Origin: Spirochaetales bacterium
GTDB taxonomy: Bacteria; Spirochaetota; Spirochaetia; PWKH01
Assembly: GCA_021736605.1 (NCBI GenBank)
Contig: JAIPFQ010000001.1
Location: forward strand, 1 to 54,536
Direction: 5' to 3'
Length of the DNA stretch: 54,536 nt
A program made the position numbers and the translations under genes. Below the pieces are notes generated by a model. That model had not been told where the DNA came from. It ran no database searches and saw nothing but the letters and a program-made list of their open reading frames with translations. Shown piece after piece: positions 15,852 through 54,536 of this stretch. The stretch's first letter is position 1. Each line of letters begins with the position of its first letter.

Positions 15852-15869
15852 GCGTAATTACTTGAAAAT

Positions 15870-15901
15870 AAAGAGGAGAAGGAGTTTTCTTTCTCCTCTT
15901 T
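15870..15901 (+). terminator. Hairpin after the binding-protein gene (partial terminator or mRNA stabiliser)
   Basis: AAAGAGGAGAA (15870-80) pairs with TTCTCCTCTTT (15891-901). The site lies 19 nt after the SBP stop and is followed by a short T-containing tail. Confidence 0.5.
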
Positions 15902-15969
15902 TAACTAAAATTAGAGTTTATAATAGAAGATGATCTCTTTTTTTTGAGTATTTTTTAGGAGTATTTGTT

Positions 15970-16884
15970 TTGAATGCACGTAAACGCAGAGAGTTGCCTG
16001 TCTATTTTGCTTTTATAGGTCCGGCACTTATTGTCTATTTAACTGTTGTTGCCTACCCGGTGTTATATTCGTTATTTCTAAGTTTCTCTGATTTCAACCC
16101 AAATATCGGCGGAACTTGGAATTTTGTTGGATTTACACATTATCATCGAATGATACAGGACCCTAATTTCTGGCACGCCTTAAAAAACAATATGATAGTA
16201 GTAGCTGTCTCTGTTTTCGGCCAGATTCCAATCGGCTTTGTTCTAGCTTATATTTTATATCGGCGGATGGTAAAAGCAAGAATATTTTTTCAATCGATGA
16301 TATTTTTACCGCATTTTTTATCAGTTATAGTTATTGGTACAATTTGGAAACGAATGTTTGAGGCTGATGGTCCCGTATCCGGGATAATTCAATTAGTAAG
16401 CGGAGACCAGACCGCTCAATTCGAGATGATGCTTCATCAGAATCAAATAATGATTCCGATTGGATTTGCATTAATTTGGATTTACACCGGCTTATATATG
16501 ATAATCTTTCTGGCAAATTTACAGAAGATTGAAGAAAGCCTTATTGAGTCAGCTAAAATTGACGGTGCCAGAGAGGCTCAAATCTTTATGAAGATTATTG
16601 TCCCTATTCTGTGGGGAACTATTCTTATTTCCTCGGTACTTGCAATAGCCGGTTCACTTAAAGGATTTGATTTGATTTTTGGTATAACAACCCAGGGACT
16701 TCAAAGACAGAATGCACTTGTGCTTCCCATTTTTATGTATGAAACAGCTTTTCGTGATTATTCAGATCCTATGCGCTTTGCTTATGGAGCAACAATTTCT
16801 AATGCGATTGTTGCAATCAGTCTTTTTATGATTGTAATAAGTAATTTAATCAGCAGAAAATTCAGACCAAATGAGGAAGACTAA
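15970..16884 (+). CDS. Carbohydrate ABC transporter permease (MalF/UgpA-like)
   Basis: 304 aa. The TTG start lies 8 nt after TAGGAG. Multiple TM helices and the EAA-type loop ESAKIDGAREAQIFMKIIVPIL are present. Confidence 0.8.
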   Translation: MNARKRRELPVYFAFIGPALIVYLTVVAYPVLYSLFLSFSDFNPNIGGTWNFVGFTHYHRMIQDPNFWHALKNNMIVVAVSVFGQIPIGFVLAYILYRRMVKARIFFQSMIFLPHFLSVIVIGTIWKRMFEADGPVSGIIQLVSGDQTAQFEMMLHQNQIMIPIGFALIWIYTGLYMIIFLANLQKIEESLIESAKIDGAREAQIFMKIIVPILWGTILISSVLAIAGSLKGFDLIFGITTQGLQRQNALVLPIFMYETAFRDYSDPMRFAYGATISNAIVAISLFMIVISNLISRKFRPNEED

Positions 16885-16885
16885 T

Positions 16886-18001
16886 ATGAAGCAGGCGCAA
16901 AATACAGAAAAACAATTCTCTGCAGCTGATTTTTTCGGAAAATCAATTTCTTATATGGTTTTTATCAGCTGGGTGCTTATTACCCTGCTGCCGCTTTTCT
17001 GGCTTGGCTACTCCTCTTTTAAGTCAAATGAAGAGCTGACACGAGATATATTTGCTTTTCCGCATGACCTCTTTGATAACTATGATGATGAATACCTGGT
17101 GATTGCTCCTCAGTTAAATGTCATTCCTGATTATGATACTGAAAAAGATCTTCGGGAACGTTTGATCATCGAATCAAAAACAATTGCACCAGGGCGCAGG
17201 CTGATGATACATTTTTTAGTAAAAGAAGATCTTCCTTCTGAAATAGCATCATTGAAGCCGGGTGATACCCTTACCCTTTCACAGCTTCCGAATAAAATGC
17301 GACGCAGGATAAGCTGGAAAACCATCTGGTTTAACTATTCATCCGCTTTTCAACGAGGCGGACTTGGGTTGAAATTTATCAACAGTATACTCTATACTAC
17401 AGTTTCAACCTTTTTTATAATCTTCCTGGGCTTAATGGCAGCTTTTGGATTCAGTAAGATGACTTTTAAAAAACTTTCAGCTGTTTTATTATCGCTGATC
17501 GGTTTCGGCTATCTTATAAGCCAGCACCAGGTGATTATCCCTCTGTTTCTTATGTATTCATCCGTGAATCTGACAGATACCCACATTGGAATTATTATTG
17601 CTTATATTGCCTTCGGATTGCCGATATCGGTTCTGCTCACGACACAGTTTATGCGAGGACTGCCAAGCAGCTTAATTGAATCAGCAAAAATTGACGGGGC
17701 AAGTACTTTTCGAAGTTTTATCAGTATAATAATGCCGATGTGCAAACCAGTTATGGTCACAGTCGGTATCATTAGCGCATTGGGAATTTGGAATGAGTTT
17801 CTGATGGTACTGGTTCTAGCCAGCACGAATGCAACAAAATCTTTACCAGTCGGGGTATACTCTTTCTCAAGCTTGACCGGTACTCAGCTTGGCTGGCAGC
17901 TGGCTGCTCTAGTGATTGCTACAGCACCAACTATGGTTGTATATTTTTCATTTCAGCGTCAACTCACCAAAGGTGTAGTCGGCGGAGCAGTTAAAGGATA
18001 A
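16886..18001 (+). CDS. Carbohydrate ABC transporter permease (MalG/UgpE-like) with enlarged first periplasmic loop
   Basis: ORF 16871..18001 trimmed to ATG 16886, which lies 1 nt after the upstream stop with a GAGGAAG RBS. The EAA loop is ESAKIDGASTFRSFISIIMPMCKP. About 85 extra residues sit between TM1 and TM2. Confidence 0.8.
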   Translation: MKQAQNTEKQFSAADFFGKSISYMVFISWVLITLLPLFWLGYSSFKSNEELTRDIFAFPHDLFDNYDDEYLVIAPQLNVIPDYDTEKDLRERLIIESKTIAPGRRLMIHFLVKEDLPSEIASLKPGDTLTLSQLPNKMRRRISWKTIWFNYSSAFQRGGLGLKFINSILYTTVSTFFIIFLGLMAAFGFSKMTFKKLSAVLLSLIGFGYLISQHQVIIPLFLMYSSVNLTDTHIGIIIAYIAFGLPISVLLTTQFMRGLPSSLIESAKIDGASTFRSFISIIMPMCKPVMVTVGIISALGIWNEFLMVLVLASTNATKSLPVGVYSFSSLTGTQLGWQLAALVIATAPTMVVYFSFQRQLTKGVVGGAVKG

Positions 18002-18005
18002 AGAC

Positions 18006-32950: not shown

Positions 32951-33118
32951 CTGAAAGCGGTAATAAGCATTGACATAAGCATAGATTTGTTATAACAATT
33001 AAATTATGTAAAAATATTGATGTAAAACTAATAAAACTTTGTATATAATGCTGTATAGCAAAATATACAAAATTAATATGTATCATCAAGTATGTGTGAT
33101 AAGGAAACAGGAGGCAAC

Positions 33119-34639
33119 ATGAATAATTCTCTAGTTAAGGATTTTATTAAGAAGACCGGGGTGGATAGTGTAACCACTGATATGCTTATATATATTGCGC
33201 AACTTGAAAAAGTTGCTGAAGTATCTCCTGAAATTGCAGGAAATATTGTCAAAGAATTAGAAGACCAGCGTTCGAATCTGAAATTAATTGCTAGTGAAAA
33301 TTACTCCTCCATTGCAGTGCAAGCCGCTATGGGAAATCTTTTTACCGATAAATATGCAGAAGGGTTCCCTTTTCATAGATTTTACGCCGGTTGTGACAAT
33401 GTTGATGATGTTGAATCAATTGCATCAAAAACAGCTTGCGAGCTTTTCGGAGCAGATCATGCCTATGTTCAGCCGCACAGCGGAGCCGATGCGAATTTAA
33501 TTGCTTATTGGGCAATTCTGCAGCATAAGGTTGAAATTCCTGCCCTTGAAGAATTGGGGGAAAAGAATCCAGCAAAATTGGAAAGGGATGACTGGAACAA
33601 AATACGCGAGCAGCTGGGGAATCAGCGCCTTCTTGGATTAGATTACTACTCCGGAGGCCATCTGACTCATGGGTATCGGCATAATGTTTCAGCACAAATG
33701 TTTGATTCCTACACCTATAGTGTCAATAAGGAAACGGGATTGCTGGATTATGATGATATTGAAGAGAAAGCAAAAGAAATAAAACCCCTTATCCTGCTGG
33801 CAGGTTACAGTGCATACCCGAGACTGATAAACTTTAAAAAGATGAAGGAAATAGCTGACGCTGTAGGTGCTGTCCTAATGGTTGATATGGCACATTTTGC
33901 CGGTCTTGTTGCAGGAAAAGTTATGACTGGAGAATATGATCCAGTAGCATACGCAGATGTTGTTACCACAACCACACATAAGACTTTGAGAGGTCCCAGG
34001 GGAGGTATGGTTTTATGTAAGGAAGAATATGCCGAAGCGGTAGATAAGGGTTGTCCAATGGTTATCGGAGGACCGCTGCCGCATGTTATGGCATCAAAAG
34101 CTGTCGCATTTAAAGAAGCATCTTCATCGGAATACAAAGATTACGCGGAAAAAATTGTTGACAATGCCCGAATTCTTGCTGAGTCATGTATGGCGCTGGA
34201 TATTCCTGTTGCATCAAATGGAACAGATAACCATCTTATGCTGCTTGATGTACGTCCATTTGGAATAAACGGAAGACAGGCTGAAAGTGTTCTGCGGGAA
34301 TGCGGCATAACATTAAACAGAAATGCGCTGCCCTTTGATCCTAACGGTCCCTGGTATACCAGCGGATTAAGAATAGGAACTCCTGCTGTTACTACTTTGG
34401 GGATGGGAAGTGACCAAATGAAAGAAATTGCCTCAATCATAAAACTTGTTCTAAACAATACATCTCCTAAAATCTTAACTAAAGGTAAAAATGCTGGAAA
34501 ACCTAGTAAAGCTAAATATGTCATAGATGCAACTGTCATTGAAGCAGCAAGAAAACGAATTTTATCCTTGTTGAATGAATATACACTCTATCCGGATTTG
34601 GATTTACAACTCCTGAAAGAGTATTTTACAGAAAAATAG
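33119..34639 (+). CDS. glyA: Serine hydroxymethyltransferase, long form
   Basis: ORF 33092..34639 trimmed to ATG 33119, with AGGAGG upstream. LIASENY, VQPHSGADAN, GGHLTHG and the PLP-lysine block VVTTTTHKTLRGPRGG are present. Extra N-terminal, internal and C-terminal segments exist relative to the ~417-aa enterobacterial enzyme. Confidence 0.9.
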   Translation: MNNSLVKDFIKKTGVDSVTTDMLIYIAQLEKVAEVSPEIAGNIVKELEDQRSNLKLIASENYSSIAVQAAMGNLFTDKYAEGFPFHRFYAGCDNVDDVESIASKTACELFGADHAYVQPHSGADANLIAYWAILQHKVEIPALEELGEKNPAKLERDDWNKIREQLGNQRLLGLDYYSGGHLTHGYRHNVSAQMFDSYTYSVNKETGLLDYDDIEEKAKEIKPLILLAGYSAYPRLINFKKMKEIADAVGAVLMVDMAHFAGLVAGKVMTGEYDPVAYADVVTTTTHKTLRGPRGGMVLCKEEYAEAVDKGCPMVIGGPLPHVMASKAVAFKEASSSEYKDYAEKIVDNARILAESCMALDIPVASNGTDNHLMLLDVRPFGINGRQAESVLRECGITLNRNALPFDPNGPWYTSGLRIGTPAVTTLGMGSDQMKEIASIIKLVLNNTSPKILTKGKNAGKPSKAKYVIDATVIEAARKRILSLLNEYTLYPDLDLQLLKEYFTEK

Positions 34640-43827: not shown

Positions 43828-44067
43828 CATTACTTTTTCAATTCATATAAGGTTATGCATTCAGTAGTTTTCTCGGAAAACATTTTTTAAAGAACGAATG
43901 AAGTGCTGTTTGCTTAAGCTGCATCAATTTACAAGTTCATCAAGAGTTATTGGTCTATTGTGTTCATTTCTTAAGAAAAATACTCTGAGTATATTCAACT
44001 TGCCTATTTTATTCATCCGCATTCTGATGACTAGGAAGTTGCCAGGTAACTCAAGTGCATAATATTG

Positions 44068-44114
44068 TTGACTTCTGCTCAAGAATGATATAGCATAAAA
44101 GCGAATACGTAGTC
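44068..44114 (+). promoter_or_regulatory. Promoter P1 plus operator O1 for the URO-D-family gene
   Basis: TTGACT (44068-73), then 17 nt, then TAGCAT (44091-96), then 6 nt, then GAATACGTAGTC (44103-44114). Confidence 0.5.
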
Positions 44115-44171
44115 ACTTGATTTCTTACTAAAATTTTTTATAAAAAGAAAAGAGAGGAACAATCAGTAATT

Positions 44172-45215
44172 ATGTCAACATTAAGAGAACGGAATTTCAG
44201 GCGTTTGAAAGAGAGCATTACTGCAAAAAGCTCAGATGGTCATGCAGTATTCAACTTCTATACTTTCCCTTTTTTCAGGTCGATTACGGGCGTAGACCTT
44301 GATCAGTATTTCCATAATCCGGAAGTGACACTTGAATGCCAGCTCGAAGCCCTGGAGAAAATCGATGGTATTGGTAATCCGGTACCGGATATGGGCGCTG
44401 TTGCTGAAGCCAGCGGACTCGGAGGGATCGTACGTTTCGATGACTACGGTTTCATTTCTGTGCATCCGAATCCGAAGATTGCATCAGCCGCAGCTTTCAG
44501 CGATGTGGACTGGCTGGAGCCGGCTGACCCCTACGGGGACAATTACATGGGACAAGCCTTGAAGACTCTGGAGTATATGGTCGATCACTGCCCTGAGGGC
44601 TACAGGATCAATCCTCACCCGATTATGGGTCCATTCACCGTGGGAGCGAGCATCAGGGGGATTAGCGACTTCGCTGCTGATACGATTATGGAACCTGATC
44701 TAGTTGCAAAAATCCTTGATGTGGTTATCGAGACCCAGATTAGATTTATGAAAGCCCAGGAAAAAATACTCGGCTCACTGCACCACATTTTCCTTGCCGA
44801 TGACCTCTCAGCATTCCTGAGCGAGGAAATGTACCGTGATATCATTCTTCCTGGTTATCACAGGCTTTTTGAACAGTTTCCCAATACCCAGCGATGGCTT
44901 CATAACGATTCAACTGCTCGTCATGTGGCTCCTGCAATTGCCGACTCCGGTATGGTTGCCTGGCAGTATCTTCCTGAGATCTCTCCTGCTGATGCCCTGA
45001 AGCTCACTGGTGGTAAGGTTACCTTGCTTGGTGGCCTGAACCCGCTTGAGATGCAGGAATGGACCGAGGAAGAGACCTACGACAAATGTGTAGAGGTCCT
45101 GAAGTCTTTCGGCGGCAACAATAAGTGCGTTCTGGCTGCGGGAGGATCTGTGAATCAGGTGCCGATTGCCAACTTAAAGGCAATGTTCAAAGCGGCTGAT
45201 GAGTATAAGCTCTAG
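44172..45215 (+). CDS. Uroporphyrinogen decarboxylase (URO-D) family protein (MtaA/CmuA-like fold; function unknown)
   Basis: 347 aa. Overall URO-D/methylcobamide methyltransferase-like pattern (...IFLADDLSAFLSEEMYRDIILPGYHRLF...). No corrinoid protein gene lies nearby. Confidence 0.6.
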   Translation: MSTLRERNFRRLKESITAKSSDGHAVFNFYTFPFFRSITGVDLDQYFHNPEVTLECQLEALEKIDGIGNPVPDMGAVAEASGLGGIVRFDDYGFISVHPNPKIASAAAFSDVDWLEPADPYGDNYMGQALKTLEYMVDHCPEGYRINPHPIMGPFTVGASIRGISDFAADTIMEPDLVAKILDVVIETQIRFMKAQEKILGSLHHIFLADDLSAFLSEEMYRDIILPGYHRLFEQFPNTQRWLHNDSTARHVAPAIADSGMVAWQYLPEISPADALKLTGGKVTLLGGLNPLEMQEWTEEETYDKCVEVLKSFGGNNKCVLAAGGSVNQVPIANLKAMFKAADEYKL

Positions 45216-45370
45216 TGCCTGATGACATGGTGCGAGCAGCAAGGCAGTTAAAGCTTCCAAAAGAGCGAGGATTCCCAAGCGGAATACCGAAGAGACTAGA
45301 TGCAGAGCATCATGAGAGTGATATGTCGGCGCCGCAGTTACAGAACTCTATCCTCAGGCTAGTCACAAGA

Positions 45371-45403
45371 GCCGGAAAATCACTGATTTTCCGGCTTCAA
45401 TTT
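45371..45403 (+). terminator. Rho-independent terminator
   Basis: GCCGGAAAATC-ACTG-GATTTTCCGGC is a perfect 11-bp stem, followed by TTCAATTT. It begins 156 nt after the URO-D stop. Confidence 0.7.
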
Positions 45404-45491
45404 CAATTACGTATTGATTAATAATATTCAGTAAATTCATGCAAAAGCAGATAGAAACTGAAACTGCAGCGAATCCAATAGCTTATTATTT

Positions 45492-46775
45492 CTATTTCAT
45501 TAACAAATTAGGTAGAAACATGGAGATCTCAGGAATAAATGTTATCAGCATCAAAGCTGCTGCCATAACTAATATAAAAGGAATAATTGATCGAGATATT
45601 CTTTCAAATGAAACTCCGGAAATCTGACAGGAGACAAAGAGATTAGCACCTAGAGGAGGTGTAACAAAGCCAATTGCCAAATTTATAACCATGATGATTC
45701 CAAATTGTACAGGACTCATACCTAAAGCTGTTACAATTGGCAGGAGGATGGGTGTTAAGATGATAACAGCAGCTAAAGTCTCCATGAATGTTCCGACAGC
45801 AAGGAGTAATAAATTAATAAGAATAAAAATTATATATTTATTACTTGAAACACCGACAATAAAGTTAGCAATTAATTCAGGAATTCGTTCAAGTGTTAAA
45901 ATTCTGCCGAAACCTGCCGATGTTCCAATGATTACAAGAACCGTTGCAGTAATTAATCCGGAACGAAGGATAACATCCGGAAGTTCAACCAGCTTAATTT
46001 CTTTGTATACAAAAACTCCTATTATATAGCCGTAAATAACTGCTGCAGCAGCCGCTTCAGTTGGGGTGAAAATACCGCCGTAAATACCTCCAAGTATGAT
46101 TACCGGAACCAATAAAGACCATTTAGCTTCGTTTATGACTGATAGTTTCTCCTTTAAGCTGTATCTTTTATCCTCGCCTTTATAATCATTTTTCTTTGAG
46201 ATGATATATGAATAAATCATTAGGGATATTCCGACTAGTATCCCAGGTAAAATACCAGCTAGAAATATTGCAGTTATCGAAACTCCTGCAGTTACTCCAT
46301 AAATTACCATTGTTATGCTTGGGGGAATCATAGCTCCAATACTACCTGATGAGGCAATTAATGCTGACGAAAACCCTTTATCATAGTTTTTTTTAGTCAT
46401 TTCTGGAATAACCATAGTACCTATAGCTGCTACAGTTGCCGATCCTGTACCGGAGATTGCCGCAAAAAACATACAGGCAACAACGGTAACTAAAGCCAAA
46501 CCTCCTGTATGATGACCAAAAAATACGTCTGCTACCTTAAGCAGTCGTTTAGAAATACCCCCTTTTCCCATGAGATCCCCGGCTAGTATAAAAAAAACTG
46601 CAGCCATAAGGGGGAAAGAATCCATTGCTGTTGTTAGTCCCTGTGCGAAGAAAGTTATATCAACAATACCGCTGTAAAATATTGTACCCATAACAGCAAG
46701 TCCCAGGGATATGCCGATAGGGACGCTTAACATAGAAAATAGGATAAATCCTCCAAATAATATTACTGATGTCAT
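45492..46775 (-). CDS. dctM: TRAP transporter large permease subunit
   Basis: 427 aa, polytopic, DctM-like. Its start overlaps the dctQ stop (TAATG). Confidence 0.88.
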   Translation of the reverse strand: MTSVILFGGFILFSMLSVPIGISLGLAVMGTIFYSGIVDITFFAQGLTTAMDSFPLMAAVFFILAGDLMGKGGISKRLLKVADVFFGHHTGGLALVTVVACMFFAAISGTGSATVAAIGTMVIPEMTKKNYDKGFSSALIASSGSIGAMIPPSITMVIYGVTAGVSITAIFLAGILPGILVGISLMIYSYIISKKNDYKGEDKRYSLKEKLSVINEAKWSLLVPVIILGGIYGGIFTPTEAAAAAVIYGYIIGVFVYKEIKLVELPDVILRSGLITATVLVIIGTSAGFGRILTLERIPELIANFIVGVSSNKYIIFILINLLLLAVGTFMETLAAVIILTPILLPIVTALGMSPVQFGIIMVINLAIGFVTPPLGANLFVSCQISGVSFERISRSIIPFILVMAAALMLITFIPEISMFLPNLLMK

Positions 46776-47335
46776 TATTTATCCTCCCCTGAGTTTCCGA
46801 CGGCGGGTATAGTATTTTTTATTCCATGCATTGGTCTATGATTAAATGTTTCAAATGGTGAAGAAAAGTTTCGTATTTTATAAACTAGATTCTGTATGAG
46901 TCTGATTGATACAAGCGTGAAGCCTATTGGCACTGCAGAGTAGACAACTGACATAGAAATCTCTGTTGAAGCTGTTATCTGTCCTAATCTCGCAATTAGC
47001 TGAGCGACCTCAGTGCTTTGAAGTGTAATGATAACTGCAAAAATTAGAAACAGAATATCAGAAATCAGCATAAGAGTTTTTCTCACGCGTAGACTGAATA
47101 AATTTGTAAATACAAGTATTCGAATATGTCTTCCTTTCCGAACGCCGTAGCTTATACCAAAATACATGAGATAGATGAACATATATCGTGAAACTTCTTC
47201 AGACCAAGCTAATGAGTTTTTCGCTACATAGCGCATAAATACTTGTATACCAATAATAATACTCATGGAAAATAAAAGCGGAACCATGAAGATTGATTCA
47301 AAGTAATCATCTAGCCATGTTAAAATTTTTTTCAT
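46775..47335 (-). CDS. dctQ: TRAP transporter small permease subunit
   Basis: 186 aa with 4 TM helices, positioned between dctP and dctM. Confidence 0.8.
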   Translation of the reverse strand: MKKILTWLDDYFESIFMVPLLFSMSIIIGIQVFMRYVAKNSLAWSEEVSRYMFIYLMYFGISYGVRKGRHIRILVFTNLFSLRVRKTLMLISDILFLIFAVIITLQSTEVAQLIARLGQITASTEISMSVVYSAVPIGFTLVSIRLIQNLVYKIRNFSSPFETFNHRPMHGIKNTIPAVGNSGEDK

Positions 47336-47432
47336 AATAATGATCCTTTTGATTTACATAAAACACAAGCTGGGAGAAACACGCTTGTTTCTCCCATTCA
47401 ATAAAATAACTCGGTTTTTCAATTATTACGTA

Positions 47433-48440
47433 TTATCTGTTTTTTTCAACTTCATCAAGAAAAATTGTAAACATATCTTCGCCCGCTTTTTCTTTTACCA
47501 GACTTTGAGATGTACTCATTAAATTTCTGAACTCTGCCTTTGCTTCCGGACTAACTTCTGTTATTGTATTTCCTGCCTTTCTAACAACTTCCAAGCCCTC
47601 TTTCTCTAATTCTTCAGCAGCGTTTCTTTGGTAAGTACTTGTCTCTTCTAATGCCTGATCAACAAGTGTTCTATGTGATTCAGACAAGCCATCGTAGAAT
47701 TCTTTATTCATAATTACTACATAAGGGCTGTATTTATGTCCTGTAAGACTAATAAATGGCTGTACTTCATAAAATTTCATTTTTTCAATATTTTCCATTG
47801 TACATTCCTGGCCATCAAGTACTTTCTGCTGAAGTGCAGTAAATAGTTCTCCCCAAGCCATTGGAGTGGGACCGGCATTTACTGATTTCCATGCAGCAAT
47901 TTGAACTGGATTTTCGGGGACGCGCATTTTTATTCCAGTCATATCTTCTGGAGTCTGAACTGATCTTTTGCTGTTGGTTAGATGGCGGAAACCATTTTCC
48001 CAATATCCTAAACCAGCAATATTTTTTGAACTTAAAGCGTTAAGCATTTTATCTCCAGCAGTTCCATCTAAAACTTTATAAACATGCTCTCTTGAATCAA
48101 ACATAAAGAAAGAATCGAGTACAAAGAACTCTTTAGCAAAGGTAGCTAAATTGGTAGCTGAAACAGCTGTCATGGTAACATTTCCAAGCTGTAGGGACTC
48201 AGTAAGCTCTCTGTCCCCTCCAAGCTGTCCATTGGAATAAATTTCTACTAATATTTCTCCATTTGAGCTTTCTTCTATAAGTTCTTTAAATTTTGTAAAA
48301 CCAAGTCCCAGGCTTGTCTCTTCTGGGAGTCCATGTCCAGCTTTAATTGTTATTGGACCTCCATTCTCATCATTTCCCTGTGCAAAGACCATTCCAGTTA
48401 AAATTGTAAAACAAATTGCTAAAAATAGAACCTTCTTCAT
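47433..48440 (-). CDS. dctP: TRAP transporter substrate-binding protein (DctP family)
   Basis: 335 aa. The signal peptide is MKKVLFLAICFTILTGMVFAQG. The DctP-type block WENGFRHLTNSKR contains the carboxylate-binding Arg position. A GGAG RBS is present. Confidence 0.85.
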   Translation of the reverse strand: MKKVLFLAICFTILTGMVFAQGNDENGGPITIKAGHGLPEETSLGLGFTKFKELIEESSNGEILVEIYSNGQLGGDRELTESLQLGNVTMTAVSATNLATFAKEFFVLDSFFMFDSREHVYKVLDGTAGDKMLNALSSKNIAGLGYWENGFRHLTNSKRSVQTPEDMTGIKMRVPENPVQIAAWKSVNAGPTPMAWGELFTALQQKVLDGQECTMENIEKMKFYEVQPFISLTGHKYSPYVVIMNKEFYDGLSESHRTLVDQALEETSTYQRNAAEELEKEGLEVVRKAGNTITEVSPEAKAEFRNLMSTSQSLVKEKAGEDMFTIFLDEVEKNR

Positions 48441-48473
48441 TTTTTTCTCCTTTTAAAATTTATTAGAAATTAT

Positions 48474-48515
48474 GACAACGTATTCATTAATAAAAGATGA
48501 TTTATCATTTGTCAA
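48474..48515 (-). promoter_or_regulatory. Promoter P2 plus operator O2 for dctPQM
   Basis: The minus strand reads TTGACA (48515-48510), then 17 nt, then TATTAA (48492-48487), then 1 nt, then GAATACGTTGTC (48485-48474). It lies about 34 nt before the dctP ATG. Confidence 0.6.
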
Positions 48516-48707
48516 GAAGAATTTTTATGTGAATTTTATGTGAAACTGATATCAGATGGAACGGAAAATATAAAAATATACTGTATAACAAAATATATTT
48601 TTGCTATTATTCTTATTCAAGCAATATATTAAGTAAATAATTACATAAGCATAAAGAAGTAAATTTCCGAAATTTTTATTTCAGTAATATTTTTTAAAAG
48701 ATAGTTG

Positions 48708-48751
48708 TAGACAACCTGGTTTTTTTGGTTTATAGTAGAGACTACGTAATC
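48708..48751 (+). promoter_or_regulatory. Promoter P3 plus operator O3 for the Ldh_2-led operon
   Basis: TAGACA (48708-13), then 17 nt, then TATAGT (48731-36), then 3 nt, then GACTACGTAATC (48740-48751). Confidence 0.6.
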
Positions 48752-48839
48752 ATTTTAGGTTTCTGGAATTTTTTCTTATAATAAAACGTAACGTATTGTG
48801 CAAGCCGTAAAAAGGGTAAGAAAGGGGAGTAACTAATTT

Positions 48840-49922
48840 ATGAATACAAAAGCAAGCTATATTACTGCTGATAATTTAATGTCTTATAGTAAAAACTTGT
48901 ATGCTAAGACTGGGATGAGTGATGCGGATGCTGAGATTTGTGCAGAATGTACCGTAAAGACAAATTTATGGGGTGTTGATTCTCATGGTATTCTTCGAAC
49001 TCCCGTCTACTTGGAACGTATATTAAATGGAGCGGTTAAGCCTAGACCTGAAATACAGGAGATTGAAAATAATAAAAAGCTGCATAGCCCCGTATCTCTT
49101 CTTGACGGGGATAAAGGGCTTGGATATGTGGTTGCTGAAAAAGCAATGGAAGCAGCTGTAAAAAAAGCTGAAAGCTTTGGTCTTGGTTTTGTATTAGTAA
49201 AAAACAGCAATCACTTTGGTGCTGCATCACTTTTTTCTCGAAAAGCTGCAGAAAAAGGGTTAATAGGTATTACGGCAACAAATGTAATGCCGAATATCGG
49301 TATGCCGGGAGGTAAACTGCCTGTTACAGGGAATAATCCTATTGCTTTGGCAGCACCAATTGGTCAGCCTTATCCTTTTTCACTGGATATTTCTATGAGT
49401 GCTGTTTCTGGAGGGAAGATTCTCTTAGCTCAGAAAAAAGGTGAAAAAATTCCGAAAAACTGGGCAGTAGATAAAAATGGGAATCCAACTGATGATCCCT
49501 TTGAGGGTTTTGCAGGTATTCTCCTTCCTGTCGGAATGCATAAAGGGCTTGGACTATCTCTCTTTATTGACATTATTACAGGGGTTTTATCGAGCGGCCC
49601 CTTTTTACAGAATTTAAAGAGTATGTATAAACATGCTGAAGAAACTAGTGAAACTTCACACGTGTTCATAGTTATCGATCCCACTTTATTTCAATCAAGG
49701 GAAACTTATGAAAAGCGAATACATGAGTGGGTTCGAATGATAAAAGCAACTCCAATGACAGATCCGGAGGCAGAACAAATAATTCCTGGTGAAATAGAGT
49801 ATAAGATAGAGAAAAGCAGGAGGGATAATGGAATACCTATACCTGCTGAATTAATAACGGATTTATCTTCAATTGAAAGTCGATTAGGAAGTGACGTACA
49901 TATTGCTGATTTATTGAATTAA
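48840..49922 (+). CDS. Ldh_2 family (malate/L-lactate/sulfolactate/diketogulonate-type) NAD(P)H oxidoreductase
   Basis: 360 aa. GVDSHGILR, NSNHFGAA, TGNNPIA and ISMSAVSGGKI blocks are typical of the Ldh_2 family. Confidence 0.8.
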   Translation: MNTKASYITADNLMSYSKNLYAKTGMSDADAEICAECTVKTNLWGVDSHGILRTPVYLERILNGAVKPRPEIQEIENNKKLHSPVSLLDGDKGLGYVVAEKAMEAAVKKAESFGLGFVLVKNSNHFGAASLFSRKAAEKGLIGITATNVMPNIGMPGGKLPVTGNNPIALAAPIGQPYPFSLDISMSAVSGGKILLAQKKGEKIPKNWAVDKNGNPTDDPFEGFAGILLPVGMHKGLGLSLFIDIITGVLSSGPFLQNLKSMYKHAEETSETSHVFIVIDPTLFQSRETYEKRIHEWVRMIKATPMTDPEAEQIIPGEIEYKIEKSRRDNGIPIPAELITDLSSIESRLGSDVHIADLLN

Positions 49923-49963
49923 ATGAAGGAAATTACTAAAAAACATTTTATAAGAGGTACTAT

Positions 49964-50878
49964 ATGAAAAAGCAGAAAGATTTTATTTTAAATCAGAGAG
50001 ATTCAGTTTGGTTTCAGGAAAACAGTGCTCATGTTGTCTGTGAGTATGCGAAAAATGTTTGCGATGTAGCAATATTGCCTATTGGAGCAATAGAGCAGCA
50101 TGCAGCCCATGCACCAACAGGTATGGATACTTTCAATGCATTAGGCATTGCAGAAAAAGTAGCTGAAAAAACTGGAGCAATGATTCTCCCCTGTCCCATG
50201 TACGGATCGCATCCTCACCACCATTGGGGTATGCCTGGCACTATCCCCTTAACCTACGAAACACATATTGGACTGCTGATGGATATCATTCGCGGGGCTT
50301 CTGTTTCAGGATATAACAAATTCCTTATCATCTCTGCTCATGGGCAAGTTTCTTCAACTATAGTAGCTACTCACAAATTGGGAATAGAGGGATTATTTAC
50401 CATCTCTTCAACCTGGTATGACTTTTTACGAGATAATAAAGATGTTCTGAAGGATTATATGTGGCATGCGGATGAAGCAGAAACTTCTGTTGGACTATAT
50501 TTGTATCCTCAATGGATTAAAATGGATCTAGCTGAAGCTGGCGGAGGAACTCCTTTACTTGATTCATCGTGGAAAATCGCCCCTGGACAAGCAGCGGAAC
50601 CAGGTATGCTGTATCATTTTGAAGGAACTTTTGCCCTGCCGGAAAAGGATGACTTGGAAAATGGAGTAATCGGAGATCCGACTCAAGCAACAAGAGAAAA
50701 AGGTGAGAAGTGTGTTGAAAGAGTGGTAGGATACTATTCAAAATTGGTAAATGAGATAACAGCTAAATATCCCTGCGGAATTAACCCCCTGGGTTTTAGA
50801 AATCCCGGTGGTTATGCAGCTTCTGCAGAAATTGCCTATGATAAAGATCATGATGAAAAAGGGCAGTTGAAGAAATAG
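49964..50878 (+). CDS. Creatininase-fold (creatinine amidohydrolase family) metal hydrolase
   Basis: 304 aa. AILPIGAIEQHAAHAPTGMD, ISAHGQ and HADEAETS blocks are present. It is longer than classical ~260-aa creatininases. Confidence 0.7.
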   Translation: MKKQKDFILNQRDSVWFQENSAHVVCEYAKNVCDVAILPIGAIEQHAAHAPTGMDTFNALGIAEKVAEKTGAMILPCPMYGSHPHHHWGMPGTIPLTYETHIGLLMDIIRGASVSGYNKFLIISAHGQVSSTIVATHKLGIEGLFTISSTWYDFLRDNKDVLKDYMWHADEAETSVGLYLYPQWIKMDLAEAGGGTPLLDSSWKIAPGQAAEPGMLYHFEGTFALPEKDDLENGVIGDPTQATREKGEKCVERVVGYYSKLVNEITAKYPCGINPLGFRNPGGYAASAEIAYDKDHDEKGQLKK

Positions 50879-50931
50879 ATACGGCTTTGAATCTTTTCAG
50901 TAAAAAGAGATTTTAAAAATTGTAAATTTTT

Positions 50932-50968
50932 GTGTGCATGGAACGAATTAAATTTTCTCCATGCGCAC
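50932..50968 (+). other. Intra-operon stem-loop (11-bp stem, 15-nt loop)
   Basis: GTGTGCATGGA (50932-42) pairs with TCCATGCGCAC (50958-68), with one G-U pair. It lies between the creatininase-fold and SDR genes. There is no U-tract. Confidence 0.4.
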
Positions 50969-51026
50969 AAAATGTCATCAAAAGTTTAAGAAATGCATTA
51001 AATAAGATAATTAAAGGATAATGTTC

Positions 51027-51860
51027 ATGAAGCTGAAAGGTAAAGTTGCAGTCATAACTGGCGGCACAAAAGGAATTGGTTTGGGAATAGCTGCAGAATT
51101 TATCAAAGAAGGTGCTTCTGTAGTAATTGGAGGAAGAAACCAGCAGACAGGTTCAGAAGGTTTGGCCTTTCTGAAAAAGTTAGGGGGAGAGGCGGCTTTT
51201 GTCCCATGTGATGTAGCCAAAGTAGAAGAGCTGGACAATATAATTGAAAAAGCAGTTGAAAAGTTCGGTAAGTTGGATATCTATGTAGCAAATGCAGGTA
51301 TAAATGATCCCGAGAAGACCCGCTATTTGGATATAACTGAAGAGCAATATGATCGGATAATGGATGTAAATCTTCGGGGAATGTTTTTTGGCGGGCAGCG
51401 GGCTGCTCGACAAATGGTGAAACAAGGCAGCGGTGGAGCGATTATAAATATGTCTTCCGTAAATGCCTACTTAGCATTGAATTCGCAGATGGTGTATACC
51501 ACCTCTAAAGGCGGGATACAGCAGTTGACAAAAGTGCAGGCGGTTGCTTTGGCAGAGCATGGTATTAAGGTGAATGCTTTAGCTCCGGGGCCTATTGAAA
51601 CAGATTTAATGCGAAGAGTTGGTTCCGACAAAGAACTTATGGATACTATTCTCTCTCGAACTCCTATAGGCAGAATTGGAACAACCCAAGAATGCGGTCG
51701 ACTTGCTGTCTTTTTAGCAAGTGAAGATTCAAATTTTATTTTTGGGCAATCAATTTATAACGATGGGGGCAGAGGATTTCAGGCTTTTCCAAATCCAGGA
51801 TACAAAACAATTACAGATGAAGATTATCAATTATTAATGGAAATGAAAAAGGAGTCATAG
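51027..51860 (+). CDS. SDR family oxidoreductase
   Basis: LKGKVAVITGGTKGIG is the TGxxxGxG motif, and NAG and YTTSK (YxxxK) are present. ATG 51027 is preferred over 51021 because of the spacing to the AAAGGA RBS. Confidence 0.85.
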   Translation: MKLKGKVAVITGGTKGIGLGIAAEFIKEGASVVIGGRNQQTGSEGLAFLKKLGGEAAFVPCDVAKVEELDNIIEKAVEKFGKLDIYVANAGINDPEKTRYLDITEEQYDRIMDVNLRGMFFGGQRAARQMVKQGSGGAIINMSSVNAYLALNSQMVYTTSKGGIQQLTKVQAVALAEHGIKVNALAPGPIETDLMRRVGSDKELMDTILSRTPIGRIGTTQECGRLAVFLASEDSNFIFGQSIYNDGGRGFQAFPNPGYKTITDEDYQLLMEMKKES

Positions 51861-51863
51861 ATT

Positions 51864-53285
51864 ATGGATTATCCGAAAGTAGGATTTGTTACATTTGGTG
51901 ATCATCGAGCACCTGAATGGAATAAAGTTTTTAAGAATCTTACTATTCCAAGACATGTCAAAGCTGTAGAAGAGTTAGAAAAACTCCCAATCAGGCTAAT
52001 ATCCTTTACTGAACCTGCAAGATCCAGAGAGGAAATAAACAGTCAAATTGATTCATTAAGAAATGAACGTGTCGATATTTTCATTGCACATACACCTTGC
52101 TGGACATCACCGAATTTAGTAGTTCATGGTGTACAGAGAATGAATCTTTTTACCATCATGCTTGGTAATAGAGATATGGGAACACATGGTTGTGTAGGCC
52201 TTTTTGGAGCTTCAGGCGCTCTTGCGCAAATTGATATTCCCCATAAAAGAGTTCGACTTAATTATGATCATAAAGAATATCAGAAAAAATTACTCCCTCT
52301 GATTCGAGCAGCTTCAGTAAAAACAAAGCTTGCTGGTTCAGTTTTGGGATATTTCGGTGGTAGATCTATTGGAATTGATACGGCTACTTTTGATCCGATG
52401 GGATGGAAAAAGCAATTTGGTATTGATGCTGAACATATTGATCAGCTTGAAATAATACGTGTTGCGGAAAAAATTGAACAAGAAAGAATTGATCGTATGA
52501 GGATGTGGTTAGAATCAAATGCAAAAGATGTGCTCTACAATGACGGTAAAATGACAAAGGAAAAATTTGATTTTCAAATTGCATGCTACCTTGCAACAAA
52601 AGATTTATGCGGAGAACATCATTTAGATTTTACTGCTGTAAAATGTATGCCTGAATTATCTAACAACTATGTTCCCCAATGTATGACAGCTGCATTCCTT
52701 CCTAATAATTTTGATGGAGATGAAGGAGCTAAAGATGCTACCGTGATGGCTTGTGAAGCAGATGCCGATGGTGCATTAACTCAACAGATATTAAAAATTA
52801 TTTCAGGAGGGATGCCGACCTTCTTTGCCGATGTAAGCCATATAGATGATGAAAGAAAAACAATTTATTGTGTAAATTGCGGCGCCATGTGCGCCTGGTA
52901 TGCAGGAAGAGAAGAAGAAGCTGAAAAAAATCTTAAAAATATAACAATCAAACAATCAATACGTCCTGGCGGCGGAGGAATCACTAGTTTTTTTGCATCT
53001 GAAGGACCTATGCAATTGGCAAGACTGTATAGGGTAGACGGTAAATACAGAATGGCAATTATCCCTTGTAAAGCGATAAATCCGGAAAAAGAAGTTATTA
53101 ATGAATTTATTGAAGCAAGAGGTCCGCATCAGTTACCAACATTATTTGCAAAGGTTGAATTTGATCTTGACGGTTTTATTGAAGAGTATGGATCTAACCA
53201 TATTTCCGGGGTAGCCGGCTTATACGAGGAAGAGCTTGTAGAAGTTTGTAAGATGCTTGATATTGAGCCTGTTGTGTTCAAGTAG
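51864..53285 (+). CDS. L-fucose/L-arabinose isomerase-like family protein
   Basis: 473 aa. MACEADADGALTQQILKIISG...FADV and an overall FucI/AraA-like C-terminal domain pattern are present. It starts 4 nt after the SDR stop. Confidence 0.6.
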   Translation: MDYPKVGFVTFGDHRAPEWNKVFKNLTIPRHVKAVEELEKLPIRLISFTEPARSREEINSQIDSLRNERVDIFIAHTPCWTSPNLVVHGVQRMNLFTIMLGNRDMGTHGCVGLFGASGALAQIDIPHKRVRLNYDHKEYQKKLLPLIRAASVKTKLAGSVLGYFGGRSIGIDTATFDPMGWKKQFGIDAEHIDQLEIIRVAEKIEQERIDRMRMWLESNAKDVLYNDGKMTKEKFDFQIACYLATKDLCGEHHLDFTAVKCMPELSNNYVPQCMTAAFLPNNFDGDEGAKDATVMACEADADGALTQQILKIISGGMPTFFADVSHIDDERKTIYCVNCGAMCAWYAGREEEAEKNLKNITIKQSIRPGGGGITSFFASEGPMQLARLYRVDGKYRMAIIPCKAINPEKEVINEFIEARGPHQLPTLFAKVEFDLDGFIEEYGSNHISGVAGLYEEELVEVCKMLDIEPVVFK

Positions 53286-53391
53286 TGCCGGTATTAGAAG
53301 AATAGATGGTGCAAATGAATGAATAGAAGAGAAGTTTTAAAAAGACAATGAATCATGAAGAGTACGGTAAAGTGCTTGTCAATCATGGTAA

Positions 53392-53570
53392 ACAGGTTGG
53401 ATTAATAAAGAGTTGTATACAGATTATATGAAAGAAGCAGGTGAATATGTACAGCTTGTTTACTTAACTGATGATTTCGGTAGTCAAAATTCTTTGCTCC
53501 TTTCACCGGATATCTGGAATGAGTTTCTGAAGCCCTATGAAGCTGGACTTATCCAGCATAAAAAATATTA
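53392..53570 (+). pseudogene. Relic of a URO-D family gene (central fragment only)
   Basis: Hand translation gives TGWINKELYTDYMKEAGEYVQLVYLTDDFGSQNSLLLSPDIWNEFLKPYEAGLIQHKKY*. It aligns in pattern with residues IETQIRFMKAQEKILGSLHHIFLADDLSAFLSEEMYRDIILPGYHRLFEQ of the intact URO-D-family gene at 44172. Stops lie immediately upstream in this frame, and another short piece (MNHEEYGKVLVNHGKQVG) sits in a different frame at 53349. Confidence 0.55.
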
Positions 53571-53604
53571 AAAAGTTAAATTAGAGACTATTTGGAGATG
53601 AGAT

Positions 53605-54390
53605 ATGGAATTAACTAACACTAATCCAGTTAAGCAGTCCCTTAGGGACGGAAAGAGAGTTTGTGCAGCCTGGGCTCAGGCTGCAAGTAATATAACTGCA
53701 GAAGTTCTTGCTGATGCAGGTTTTGATATTGTTATGGTTGATATGGAGCATGGTCCTGGGGATATCCTTACCCTCATTAGTCAAATACAAGCGATGAAAG
53801 GGAATGCTGCTGTTCCTTTTGTAAGAGCCCCGTGGAATGATTTCGTCATGATTAAGAAAATTCTTGATGCTGGAGCTTTTGGGCTGCTTGTTCCCTATGT
53901 AAATAATCTTGAACAGGCAAAAGCTGCTGTTAAAGCAGTAAAATATCCAACTCAGGGTATTCGCGGTGTTTCAGGAAGCCCAAGGGGACCCCATTTTGGG
54001 AATAAATCGCTTGATTACATGAAAAAGGCTAATGAAGAAATATTTTTAATGACGGCGATTGAAACCCCTGAAGCAGTGGCAAACATTGATGAACTTCTTT
54101 CTGTTGATGAGATTGATGGAATATTTATCGGTCCAATGGATTTAGCAACAAGCATGGGCCATTTTGGCAACCCTTCTCATCCTGATGTGAAAAAAACAAT
54201 TGAGAAGATCGAAAATAAAGTCATTTCCAGCAATAAAATCTTAGCAACTGTAGGCGGGACATGGGACCAGGCAATAGAAAAGTATGAAAAAGGTTATCAA
54301 ATTTTAATGCTTATGTCTGATACCACTAGCCTTAGTTCTTTTGCAAGAAAATTGACTGAAAATTTTTTCAAACAATTCCCTGACAGATAG
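53605..54390 (+). CDS. HpcH/HpaI family (class II, 2-keto-3-deoxy-acid) aldolase
   Basis: 261 aa. VMVDMEHGPG, VRAPWND, GLLVPYVN and IGPMDLA blocks are typical of HpcH/HpaI/YfaU-type aldolases. Confidence 0.8.
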   Translation: MELTNTNPVKQSLRDGKRVCAAWAQAASNITAEVLADAGFDIVMVDMEHGPGDILTLISQIQAMKGNAAVPFVRAPWNDFVMIKKILDAGAFGLLVPYVNNLEQAKAAVKAVKYPTQGIRGVSGSPRGPHFGNKSLDYMKKANEEIFLMTAIETPEAVANIDELLSVDEIDGIFIGPMDLATSMGHFGNPSHPDVKKTIEKIENKVISSNKILATVGGTWDQAIEKYEKGYQILMLMSDTTSLSSFARKLTENFFKQFPDR

Positions 54391-54422
54391 GAAAAAAAGA
54401 ACGAAAGAGACAGGAGGAATAT

Positions 54423-54536
54423 ATGGCGAAAGTGAAAGTAGGAGTAGCAGGATACGGAGTAATCGGCCAGCGATTGGCAGACGGAGTAGCCCTGCAGGGA
54501 GATATGGAGCTGATAGGAGTGGCGGATGTAGCGCCG
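54423..54536 (+). CDS. NAD(P)-dependent dehydrogenase resembling type II (archaeal-type) glyceraldehyde-3-phosphate dehydrogenase; 5' part only
   Basis: Not in the ORF track because it is open at the window edge. ATG 54423 follows CAGGAGGAATAT. MAKVKVGVAGYGVIGQRLADGVALQGDMELIGVADVAP closely parallels the GYGTVGKRVADA..QDDM.VIGV N-terminus of type II GAPDH. A meso-DAP dehydrogenase-like fold cannot be excluded from 38 aa. Confidence 0.45.
   Translation, partial: MAKVKVGVAGYGVIGQRLADGVALQGDMELIGVADVAP

Follow-up and report, generated by a model that had tools for sequence, protein, structure and literature searches.

A co-regulated, transporter-linked gene cluster in a Spirochaetales contig and its possible role in the anaerobic breakdown of a ring-shaped hydroxy acid

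In the oxidative-hydrolytic inositol pathway of Thermotoga maritima, outlined with its enzymes IolG, IolM, IolN, and IolO in PMC5931981 (after Rodionova et al. 2013), the ring of diketo-inositol is hydrolyzed by IolN to 5-keto-L-gluconate. A creatininase-fold hydrolase of an IolN-like clade is also encoded in the gene cluster described here, which lies at the end of contig JAIPFQ010000001.1 from a metagenome-assembled genome of the Spirochaetia (Spirochaetales bacterium). The window analyzed is this one whole contig of 54,536 bp. Besides the hydrolase, the cluster codes for a protein of the URO-D superfamily, a DctPQM tripartite ATP-independent periplasmic (TRAP) transporter, an Ldh_2-family oxidoreductase, a short-chain dehydrogenase/reductase (SDR), a FucI/AraA-like isomerase, an HpcH/HpaI aldolase, and the beginning of a type II glyceraldehyde-3-phosphate dehydrogenase (GAPDH) homologue (Table 1). 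We conclude that this gene set is a real co-regulated catabolic unit. Our favored interpretation, to which we give a probability of roughly 0.4, is that the region covers the greater part of a regulon under LacI repression, by which a hydroxylated organic acid is degraded anaerobically; this acid would probably be carbocyclic (similar to quinate, or a cyclitol carboxylate) and would carry O-methyl groups in some lineages. Protein families, operator, and synteny were observed directly, and from them we infer the individual reactions.

Compared with the T. maritima pathway, the present system shares an IolN-clade creatininase-fold hydrolase as the constant component, a polyol dehydrogenase beside it (an IolM-like zinc-dependent alcohol dehydrogenase, Zn-ADH, in a second genomic context described below), and presumably the logic of a diketone whose ring is opened hydrolytically to a keto acid. 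The window is, however, devoid of IolG (Gfo/Idh/MocA family), IolM (Zn-ADH), and IolO (TIM-barrel epimerase). Import by a carboxylate-type TRAP system and a link to corrinoid methyltransferases are further differences, and the tagaturonate/2-keto-3-deoxygluconate route of T. maritima is replaced in the lower part by Ldh_2, FucI-like isomerase, and HpcH aldolase. The lower half of the Bacillus-type iol pathway (IolB, IolC, IolJ) is echoed by an IolB-like isomerase in the second context and, in one related locus (L033), by a DUF1537 kinase and a class II ketose-bisphosphate aldolase following the IolC/IolJ logic. IolD and IolE are missing, however, the kinase is of the DUF1537 and not of the PfkB type, and none of these genes occurs in the window.

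Other described systems share single modules with the cluster. Corrinoid O-demethylases such as Mtv, Odm, and Mto (PMC8630106) resemble the combination of MtaA-family methyltransferase, corrinoid protein, and pterin-binding methyltransferase found in relatives. Whereas the known systems stand alone and act on aryl methyl ethers, the module is here embedded in a sugar- or cyclitol-like operon; the window contains only the URO-D gene, and this URO-D clade is very divergent (55 bits to MtaA by profile). Non-phosphorylative sugar-acid routes (GarL, HpaI, YfaU/RhmA) have in common with the cluster the HpcH aldolase, the pair of SDR and SMP-30 lactonase present in relatives, the absence of a kinase from the window, and the modules for aldehyde oxidation, but the conserved set described here has no dehydratase and contains Ldh_2, creatininase-fold, and URO-D proteins in addition. 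As in the yiaK-S operon of Escherichia coli (YiaK and the YiaMNO TRAP system for 2,3-diketo-L-gulonate), the TRAP importer adjoins an Ldh_2 oxidoreductase; unlike there, LyxK, SgbH, SgbU, and SgbE are missing, and YiaK-type enzymes are the weakest Ldh_2 matches. The initial annotation had recognized one catabolic unit with an enzyme combination of no textbook pathway. This view was borne out by full-text searches of papers from PMC open access and bioRxiv, in which no match to the gene set (creatininase with Ldh_2 and TRAP, IolN, anaerobic quinate clusters, CxaP) was found and nothing matched on corrinoid demethylation of methyl sugars, pinitol, or gadusol. We regard the cluster as a genomically well-defined system that is probably a variant of known catabolic kinds.

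A conserved gene set under a shared operator

The families had initially been called by eye, with profile searches suggested as a check. A six-frame listing of open reading frames (ORFs) and hidden Markov model (HMM) scans with Pfam and NCBIfam found all 10 genes at the coordinates of Table 1, reproduced all ten family calls, and reassigned none. A scan of the window for the 14-bp palindrome TGANTACGTANTCA gave matches with one mismatch at 44102, 48473, and 48739 only (operators O1, O2, and O3). With up to two mismatches, six matches were obtained against 1.66 expected, a number reached by none of 100 shuffles (0/100). Each of the three operators is located just downstream of a promoter-like −10 element, those of the URO-D gene, the dctPQM operon, and the Ldh_2 operon, so that the shared operator claimed at the outset was confirmed. 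It is a LacI-type palindrome with a central CG and the consensus TGAATACGTATTCA.

When the creatininase-fold protein was taken as anchor and one genome of each species was scanned, 167 relatives were obtained, and 80 loci were kept (cited by number, such as L006). All neighboring ORFs were clustered into families, which were counted over the 67 non-duplicate loci among the 80. The core families recurred in 46 (Ldh_2), 45 (isomerase), 43 (SDR), and 42 (HpcH aldolase) of the 67 loci; they were followed by SMP-30 lactonase (32), a second URO-D subtype called UroD-B (29), DctP (28), and LacI (28). The Ldh_2 and hydrolase genes are usually neighbors. The core of Ldh_2, creatininase-fold hydrolase, SDR, FucI-like isomerase, and HpcH aldolase occurs together with the operator in anaerobes of the Spirochaetia, Clostridia (gut species among them), Desulfobacterota, and Chloroflexota. 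Across the 1.29 Mb of sequence from related loci, TGAATACGTATTCA was matched 75 times with at most one mismatch, nearly always in intergenic regions, where it precedes Ldh_2, lactonase, TRAP, ATP-binding cassette (ABC) transporter, UroD-B, transaldolase, aldehyde:ferredoxin oxidoreductase (AFOR), or LacI genes. Operator-bearing loci belong to Spirochaetia, gut Lachnospiraceae, Desulfobacterota, and Anaerolineae, that is, to four phyla, and a site equivalent to O3 lies 15–60 bp 5' of the Ldh_2 gene in L006–L012. We reject a chance juxtaposition of these genes, since they share the operator and their synteny extends over four phyla.

The contig terminates within the GAPDH gene, where an independent assembly is also broken, so that the cluster seen here is a truncated and not a complete one. 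After the aldolase gene, the nearest relatives (L006, L007, L009, L010) continue with genes for type II GAPDH, phosphoglycerate kinase (PGK), a LarA homologue, an Asp/Glu-racemase-like protein, LacI, and a lactonase. In L006, the nearest of them, the LacI gene is situated just past the point at which the window stops. No LacI gene is present within the window because the contig ends.

The transported acid and the proposed ring-opening hydrolase

DctP, DctQ, and DctM all passed their Pfam cut-offs, and DctP and DctM also those of NCBIfam, in which DctQ had no passing match. Binding of carboxylates by DctP-type proteins involves the triad Arg152, Arg173, and Asn213 (PMC11668362). The DctP protein of the window keeps Arg152 (FRHLTN), the salt-bridging Arg173 (KMRVP), Trp196, and Asp76, and carries Cys in place of Asn213 (4P47 numbering). 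The same exchange (motif DGQEC) is found in most cluster-linked DctP proteins (L006–L076), in both genomic contexts and down to ~33% identity; a few of them have Ser or Gly at position 213, with Arg152, Arg173, and Trp196 kept. The shared DGQEC change suggests a common ligand class. An organic acid as the imported compound, as originally deduced from the arginine context, is supported by the retained Arg152, Arg173, and Trp196, even though Asn213 is replaced.

The creatininase-fold protein scored 160.6 bits with the model of IolN, a 3-dehydro-scyllo-inosose hydrolase (NF041098), 78.8 bits with MftE, and 77.3 bits with creatininase (TIGR04448). Likewise, 10 of 10 aligned family members matched IolN best, at about twice their creatininase or MftE score. 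We propose that the protein is a ring-opening C–C hydrolase. The ring-containing substrate already considered in the initial annotation fits this best match to a ring-opening enzyme; the opening of cyclic amides named there is probably the wrong chemistry, as the IolN match better supports C–C hydrolysis of a cyclic 1,3-diketone. Dihydrophloroglucinol cyclohydrolase, which also hydrolyzes a ring C–C bond, was rejected as a model since it belongs to the 'cyclase' and not to the creatininase family, and it serves as an analogy only.

In Clostridia, the same hydrolase (60–77% identical) occurs in the second genomic context, in which the partners come from other families of the same activity type. 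A Zn-ADH takes the place of the SDR, a KduI/IolB protein that of the FucI-like isomerase, a D-2-hydroxyacid dehydrogenase that of Ldh_2, and a UlaG-like metallo-β-lactamase (MBL) hydrolase that of the lactonase; hydrolase, URO-D, HpcH aldolase, and TRAP transporter are retained. The top match of the Zn-ADH was IolM with 235 bits, and the sole match of the isomerase was IolB with 116 bits. This replacement of partners establishes which types of activity the pathway comprises, and it again points to cyclitol-like chemistry. Both versions are adjacent within ~33 kb in Clostridium sediminicola SH18-2 (L031 and L033; NZ_BAABMF010000014.1, ~90–123 kb), one with Zn-ADH, IolB-like protein, 2-hydroxyacid dehydrogenase, and MBL hydrolase, and the other with SDR, FucI-like isomerase, Ldh_2, and SMP-30 lactonase. 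Two TRAP systems, two LacI genes, and both URO-D subtypes lie between them.

The hydrolase might alternatively open a heterocycle. The imported compound would then be an acyclic keto sugar acid, or a lactone or lactam, whose keto and hydroxy positions are shifted by Ldh_2, SDR, and isomerase before the HpcH aldolase frees pyruvate and the GAPDH-like enzyme oxidizes the resulting aldehyde. The transporter speaks for such a substrate, as the nearest solved DctP relatives bind sugar acids or small hydroxy acids and the best equivalog matches of DctM and DctQ were YiaN (274 bits, cut-off 800) and YiaM (27 bits, cut-off 260) of the 2,3-diketo-L-gulonate system, whose YiaK belongs to the Ldh_2 family. 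SDR and lactonase form the classic pair for the conversion of aldoses to aldonates, and the GAPDH, PGK, and malate racemase genes that follow the aldolase gene, like AFOR elsewhere, fit the oxidation of a malate-semialdehyde-like aldolase product. We consider this scenario plausible but less likely than the carbocyclic one. None of the ~45 core clusters contains a dehydratase that could create the 3-deoxy position, the creatininase-fold protein matches the C–C hydrolase IolN far better than amide hydrolases, its partners in the second context resemble IolM and IolB, and the opening of a heterocycle leaves unexplained why the hydrolase is the most constant member of the set.

Proposed route, lower branches, and URO-D proteins

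According to the favored carbocyclic interpretation, the acid would be taken up by DctPQM, and the methyl group of an ether, where present, would be transferred by the URO-D/MtaA-like methyltransferase to a corrinoid protein whose gene would lie at another place in the genome. The SDR would oxidize ring hydroxyls to a cyclic 1,3-diketone, in which the IolN-like enzyme would hydrolyze a ring C–C bond to give an open-chain product terminating in a carboxylate on one side and in a hydroxyacetyl group (HOCH2-CO-) on the other. The latter could be converted by the FucI-like isomerase into a 2-hydroxyaldehyde and oxidized to the acid by the type II GAPDH homologue, with a yield of ATP where PGK is present as in the relatives; SDR with lactonase, or AFOR, would take over this oxidation in other lineages. 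Ldh_2 would then form the 2-oxo acid, and the HpcH aldolase would cleave it to pyruvate and a C4 dicarboxylate precursor (oxaloacetate or malate semialdehyde) that ends as malate. Worked out on paper for quinate, the route would lead via 3,5-didehydroquinate, 3-carboxy-3,6-dihydroxy-5-oxohexanoate, and 4-carboxy-4-hydroxy-2-oxoadipate to pyruvate and oxaloacetate. As a matter of chemical reasoning, 4-deoxygadusol with its hydroxymethyl group oxidized would yield the 4-O-methyl form of the 3,5-didehydroquinate diketone, a route that could rationalize the HisD-like, demethylase, and M19 genes of ABC-linked marine versions of the cluster.

Among the enzymes of this route, the SDR passed a subfamily model for glucose 1-dehydrogenase (232.5 bits, cut-off 215). 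The best NCBIfam match of Ldh_2 was sulfolactate dehydrogenase (ComC, 269 bits, cut-off 500), with type 2 malate dehydrogenases as best PDB matches; the aldolase scored 230 bits with GarL and 229 bits with HpaI (cut-offs 369–407), which were also its best matches in the PDB. The isomerase reached 74 bits with the sulfoquinovose isomerase SftI (cut-off 700). Sequence searches of the PDB returned no relative at all for the isomerase and no close functional homologue of the creatininase-fold protein or URO-D. The GAPDH fragment matched PRK04207 with an E value of 1e-12 over 38 aa and is 89% identical over 35 aa to the L010 protein, and the full-length GAPDH of L006 scored 392 bits (cut-off 185) and has the motif SCNTT.

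Since the top NCBIfam matches of isomerase and Ldh_2 are enzymes of sulfonate metabolism, we also considered that a sulfoquinovose-like compound is isomerized by the SftI-like enzyme and cleaved, with sulfolactaldehyde oxidized to sulfolactate by the GAPDH/PGK paralogues before the ComC-like Ldh_2 acts. A transaldolase in paralogous clusters, an isethionate-binding DctP among the closer PDB relatives of DctP, and the HisD-like gene in Desulfobacterota, which belongs to the family of HpsN, would agree with such a route. We hold it to be very improbable, as both scores are far under their cut-offs, the annotated families of the 80 loci include no recognized sulfite-releasing enzyme or sulfonate exporter, and the creatininase-fold enzyme, URO-D, the corrinoid module, malate racemase, and malate dehydrogenase would have no role.

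The lower branches of related clusters vary in a way that is consistent with the carbocyclic interpretation. DUF1537 or FGGY kinases, class II aldolases, or transaldolase occur as alternatives, and three modules could act on a ketose-like HOCH2-CO- end, namely the isomerase, the transaldolase, and the DUF1537 kinase with a class II ketose-bisphosphate aldolase. All three fit the end left by an IolN-type cleavage, which suggests a ketose-like acid as intermediate. The absence of kinase and dehydratase genes that had been noted at first holds within the window, truncated as it is at the GAPDH gene, but kinases do belong to related clusters. Sugar-acid dehydratases (IlvD/Edd, enolase superfamily, or UxaA type) were found neither in the window nor among the recurrent families of the 80 loci. 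For aldehyde oxidation, the relatives likewise possess three interchangeable solutions: GAPDH with PGK, AFOR, and SDR with lactonase. Maledivibacter halophilus and related Clostridia (L039–L043) display yet another layout, in which the hydrolase gene is followed by a gene for a 4-hydroxybutyryl-CoA dehydratase-like protein (HpaB family) and by NifU-like, enoyl-CoA hydratase, CoA-transferase, and acyl-CoA dehydrogenase genes, while an HpcH aldolase gene is missing; this layout suggests a CoA-dependent lower branch.

Malate is implicated as the end product by racemase and dehydrogenase genes of the relatives. The LarA homologues are predicted malate racemases of the LarAH6 type, with 590 bits in L040 and 548 bits in L060 (both past the cut-off of 500), and malate racemase is still the best match of the Spirochaete copies (384–396 bits). 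A true malate dehydrogenase gene (TIGR01763, 456 bits, cut-off 352) is inserted between the AFOR and creatininase-fold genes at L020:7911-8837 and L026:8966-9892. These genes fit the predicted outcome of pyruvate plus an oxidized unit, here of four carbons. In L009, a single ORF of 848 aa (15456-18002), directly 3' of the type II GAPDH gene, encodes PGK fused to a LarA-type (malate-racemase-like) nickel-pincer racemase. The GAPDH-like enzyme had been placed after the aldolase in the initial annotation. That order is right if the aldolase product is malate semialdehyde, in which case the C7 precursor becomes unclear; gene order is not reaction order, however, and the enzyme may act before the aldolase.

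The URO-D proteins comprise two subtypes. UroD-A, which occurs in 9 loci, scored 54–57 bits with the MtaA/CmuA models of NCBIfam (cut-offs 235–244), and these ranked ahead of HemE; in a profile search of the PDB with the URO-D family, MtaA came first with 55 bits, followed by HemE with 47 bits. UroD-B (~390 aa) is usually encoded between the isomerase and aldolase genes. In the window, this second URO-D gene is decayed (frameshifted and internally deleted): ~30 N-terminal residues are joined out of frame to residues ~198–256, followed by a stop codon. The remnant shows 66–77% identity to UroD-B of L022, L020, and L009 by blastx, where the gene in the same slot is intact.

Of 42 URO-D loci, 10 encode a corrinoid protein within 10 kb of the URO-D gene; a methyltetrahydrofolate:corrinoid methyltransferase (MeTr) is present in 7 and RACo in 3. 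The corrinoid or demethylase module was seen in Desulfobacterota, Chloroflexota, and some Clostridia. In Desulfobacterota, the 5' part of the operon encodes an ABC transporter, two M19 peptidases, a SnoaL-like protein, a lactonase, a HisD-like protein, and an SDR, and the 3' part Ldh_2, hydrolase, SDR, isomerase, UroD-B, HpcH aldolase, corrinoid protein, and MeTr (306 bits, above the cut-off of 259). The corrinoid gene is thus the second one past that of URO-D, with the aldolase gene immediately on its 5' side and the MeTr gene following. RACo is encoded nearby in L071 and L080, next to the UroD-A gene in the Oscillibacter locus and not far from the UroD-B gene in the Chloroflexota locus; the UroD-A orthologue of L071 adjoins RACo and a corrinoid protein. 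L024 is the sole Spirochaete case, with a RACo gene ~10 kb from the URO-D gene. In the Mtv and Mto O-demethylases, the MT1 subunits group with the MtaA/CmuA family (PMC8630106). By its gene content, the arrangement of URO-D, corrinoid protein, and MeTr or RACo in the relatives is an O-demethylase architecture. Because the family sits in such modules, we assign a demethylation step to the pathway and regard UroD-A as a putative substrate:corrinoid methyltransferase. The initial annotation had named URO-D as a fold only; the family was confirmed, but its association with O-demethylase modules in relatives and the decayed second copy had escaped notice.

The URO-D protein of the window could instead be a cofactor-free decarboxylase, or have some other role, acting on a pathway intermediate, with no methylated substrate in this organism. 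The 54.5-kb window indeed contains no corrinoid protein, MeTr, or RACo gene, and in the Spirochaete loci no corrinoid protein or MeTr gene occurs within 10 kb. The MtaA zinc motif His-x-Cys is missing from the URO-D proteins, which have His-x-Asp and no conserved Cys, and HemE scores almost as high as MtaA; in addition, the second copy is decayed, and none is present in L006 and L008, the closest TRAP-linked relatives. Against a decarboxylase stand the corrinoid genes near 10 of 42 URO-D loci together with the Desulfobacterota operons carrying both corrinoid protein and MeTr, the UroD-A orthologue next to RACo and corrinoid protein in L071, and the MtaA/CmuA models of NCBIfam, which outrank HemE. 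On balance, we consider the decarboxylase unlikely. Given the loss of the MtaA-type His-x-Cys motif to His-x-Asp and the lack of any conserved Cys, S-methyl donors were judged unlikely as well, and the mlp methyltransferase clusters (PMC10418091) were set aside since they concern methyl-sulfur metabolism in a different context.

The probability given to the carbocyclic interpretation takes into account the evidence that weighs against it. To the missing corrinoid genes, the altered zinc motif, and the near-equal similarity of the URO-D proteins to HemE and MtaA we add that all NCBIfam matches suggesting a function for IolN-, IolM-, and IolB-like proteins fall under the equivalog cut-offs; the enzyme functions are predictions from sequence. 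IolN reached 160.6 of the 245 bits called for (creatininase 77.3 of 235), IolM 235 of 450 with threonine dehydrogenase nearly tied at 233, and IolB 116 of 205. The model needs up to four oxidations, and three dehydrogenases are visible in the window. The M19 dipeptidases, SnoaL-like proteins, and HisD-like dehydrogenase of the ABC-linked relatives have no rigorous explanation in it. The ligands of the nearest solved DctP homologues are open-chain sugar acids and not ring acids. We also know of no HpcH-family enzyme that cleaves 4-carboxy-4-hydroxy-2-oxoadipate.

A more far-reaching proposal, which we regard as a long shot, is a so far unreported way of degrading carbocyclic polyols and acids, along with the corresponding methyl ethers, under anaerobic conditions, for which quinate-type acids, O-methyl-inositols (pinitol, for example), or the 4-deoxygadusol core of mycosporine-like amino acids are candidate substrates. 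It would bring together three features that are new in combination. These would be a corrinoid O-demethylase for a non-aromatic enol or alkyl methyl ether; hydrolytic ring opening by an IolN-like enzyme; and archaeal-type GAPDH/PGK paralogues that derive ATP from a hydroxy-aldehyde acid that is not phosphorylated, with malate reached by way of a nickel-pincer racemase and malate dehydrogenase. To our knowledge, no anaerobic gene set for quinate-type acids or methylated cyclitols has been described. If the favored carbocyclic model holds, it would provide a gene-level handle on strict anaerobes of marine sediments, microbial mats, and animal guts that consume ring-shaped plant and algal metabolites without oxygenases, extend corrinoid O-demethylation past aromatic ethers, and assign roles to large clades within the creatininase, URO-D, Ldh_2, and FucI-like families that have no annotation. 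The conserved operator and the unusual DGQEC signature of DctP make the regulon easily traceable in genomes, and the cultured carriers of the cluster, Faecalicatena orotica DSM 1287, Eubacterium aggregans SR12, Clostridium sediminicola SH18-2, Alkalibacter mobilis, and Butyricicoccus pullicaecorum, allow direct tests.

Cluster limits and further features of the window

The genes 5' of the cluster are housekeeping genes (recO, a gene for a LigT-like phosphoesterase, and recJ), and we therefore placed its start near position 44000. A small ORF upstream probably encodes ribosomal protein S21.

Table 1. Coordinates of genes, operators, and other elements of the cluster in the 54,536-bp window
Feature	Position	Strand	Remarks
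Operator O1, CGAATACGTAGTCA	44102-44115		~57 bp 5' of the URO-D start codon; promoter-like site 44068-44096 just upstream
URO-D superfamily protein, subtype UroD-A (MtaA/CmuA-like)	44172-45215	+	Pfam URO-D, 85 bits
Strong hairpin, 13-bp stem	45370-45397		Convergent gap between URO-D gene and dctM
DctM, TRAP large permease	45492-46775	-	Pfam, 386 bits; TIGR00786, 429 bits, above cut-off
DctQ, TRAP small permease	46775-47335	-	Pfam, 116 bits
DctP, TRAP solute-binding protein	47433-48440	-	Pfam, 298 bits
Operator O2, TGACAACGTATTCA	48473-48486		dctP side of the divergent promoter region
Operator O3, AGACTACGTAATCA	48739-48752		Directly 3' of the promoter-like site of the Ldh_2 operon, 48708-48736
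Ldh_2-family 2-hydroxyacid/2-oxoacid oxidoreductase	48840-49922	+	Pfam, 364 bits
Creatininase-fold hydrolase, IolN-like clade	49964-50878	+	Pfam Creatininase, 167 bits
SDR dehydrogenase	51021-51860	+	adh_short_C2, 221 bits
FucI/AraA-like aldose-ketose isomerase	51864-53285	+	Fucose_iso_C, 73 bits; N1, 24 bits
Decayed UroD-B remnant	53309-53570	+	blastx to UroD-B of relatives
HpcH/HpaI class II pyruvate aldolase	53605-54390	+	Pfam HpcH_HpaI, 138 bits
Type II (archaeal-type) phosphorylating GAPDH homologue, first 38 aa only	54423-54536	+	48 bits, E 1e-12

Between the convergently transcribed URO-D and dctM genes lies a gap of 276 bp (45216-45491); it is relatively GC-rich, and its predicted fold is more stable than those of shuffled sequences (z = −3.3). 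The gap had no Rfam match and no similarity to related loci, and searches across the window for structured RNAs, B12 riboswitches, and tRNAs found none. The hairpin within the gap is likely a bidirectional terminator, as judged from the predicted fold. Outside the cluster, the ORF for serine hydroxymethyltransferase (33092-34639) is 515 aa long and matches its Pfam model in two stretches, a pattern that points to extra sequence at the N terminus, a wrongly set start, or an insertion.

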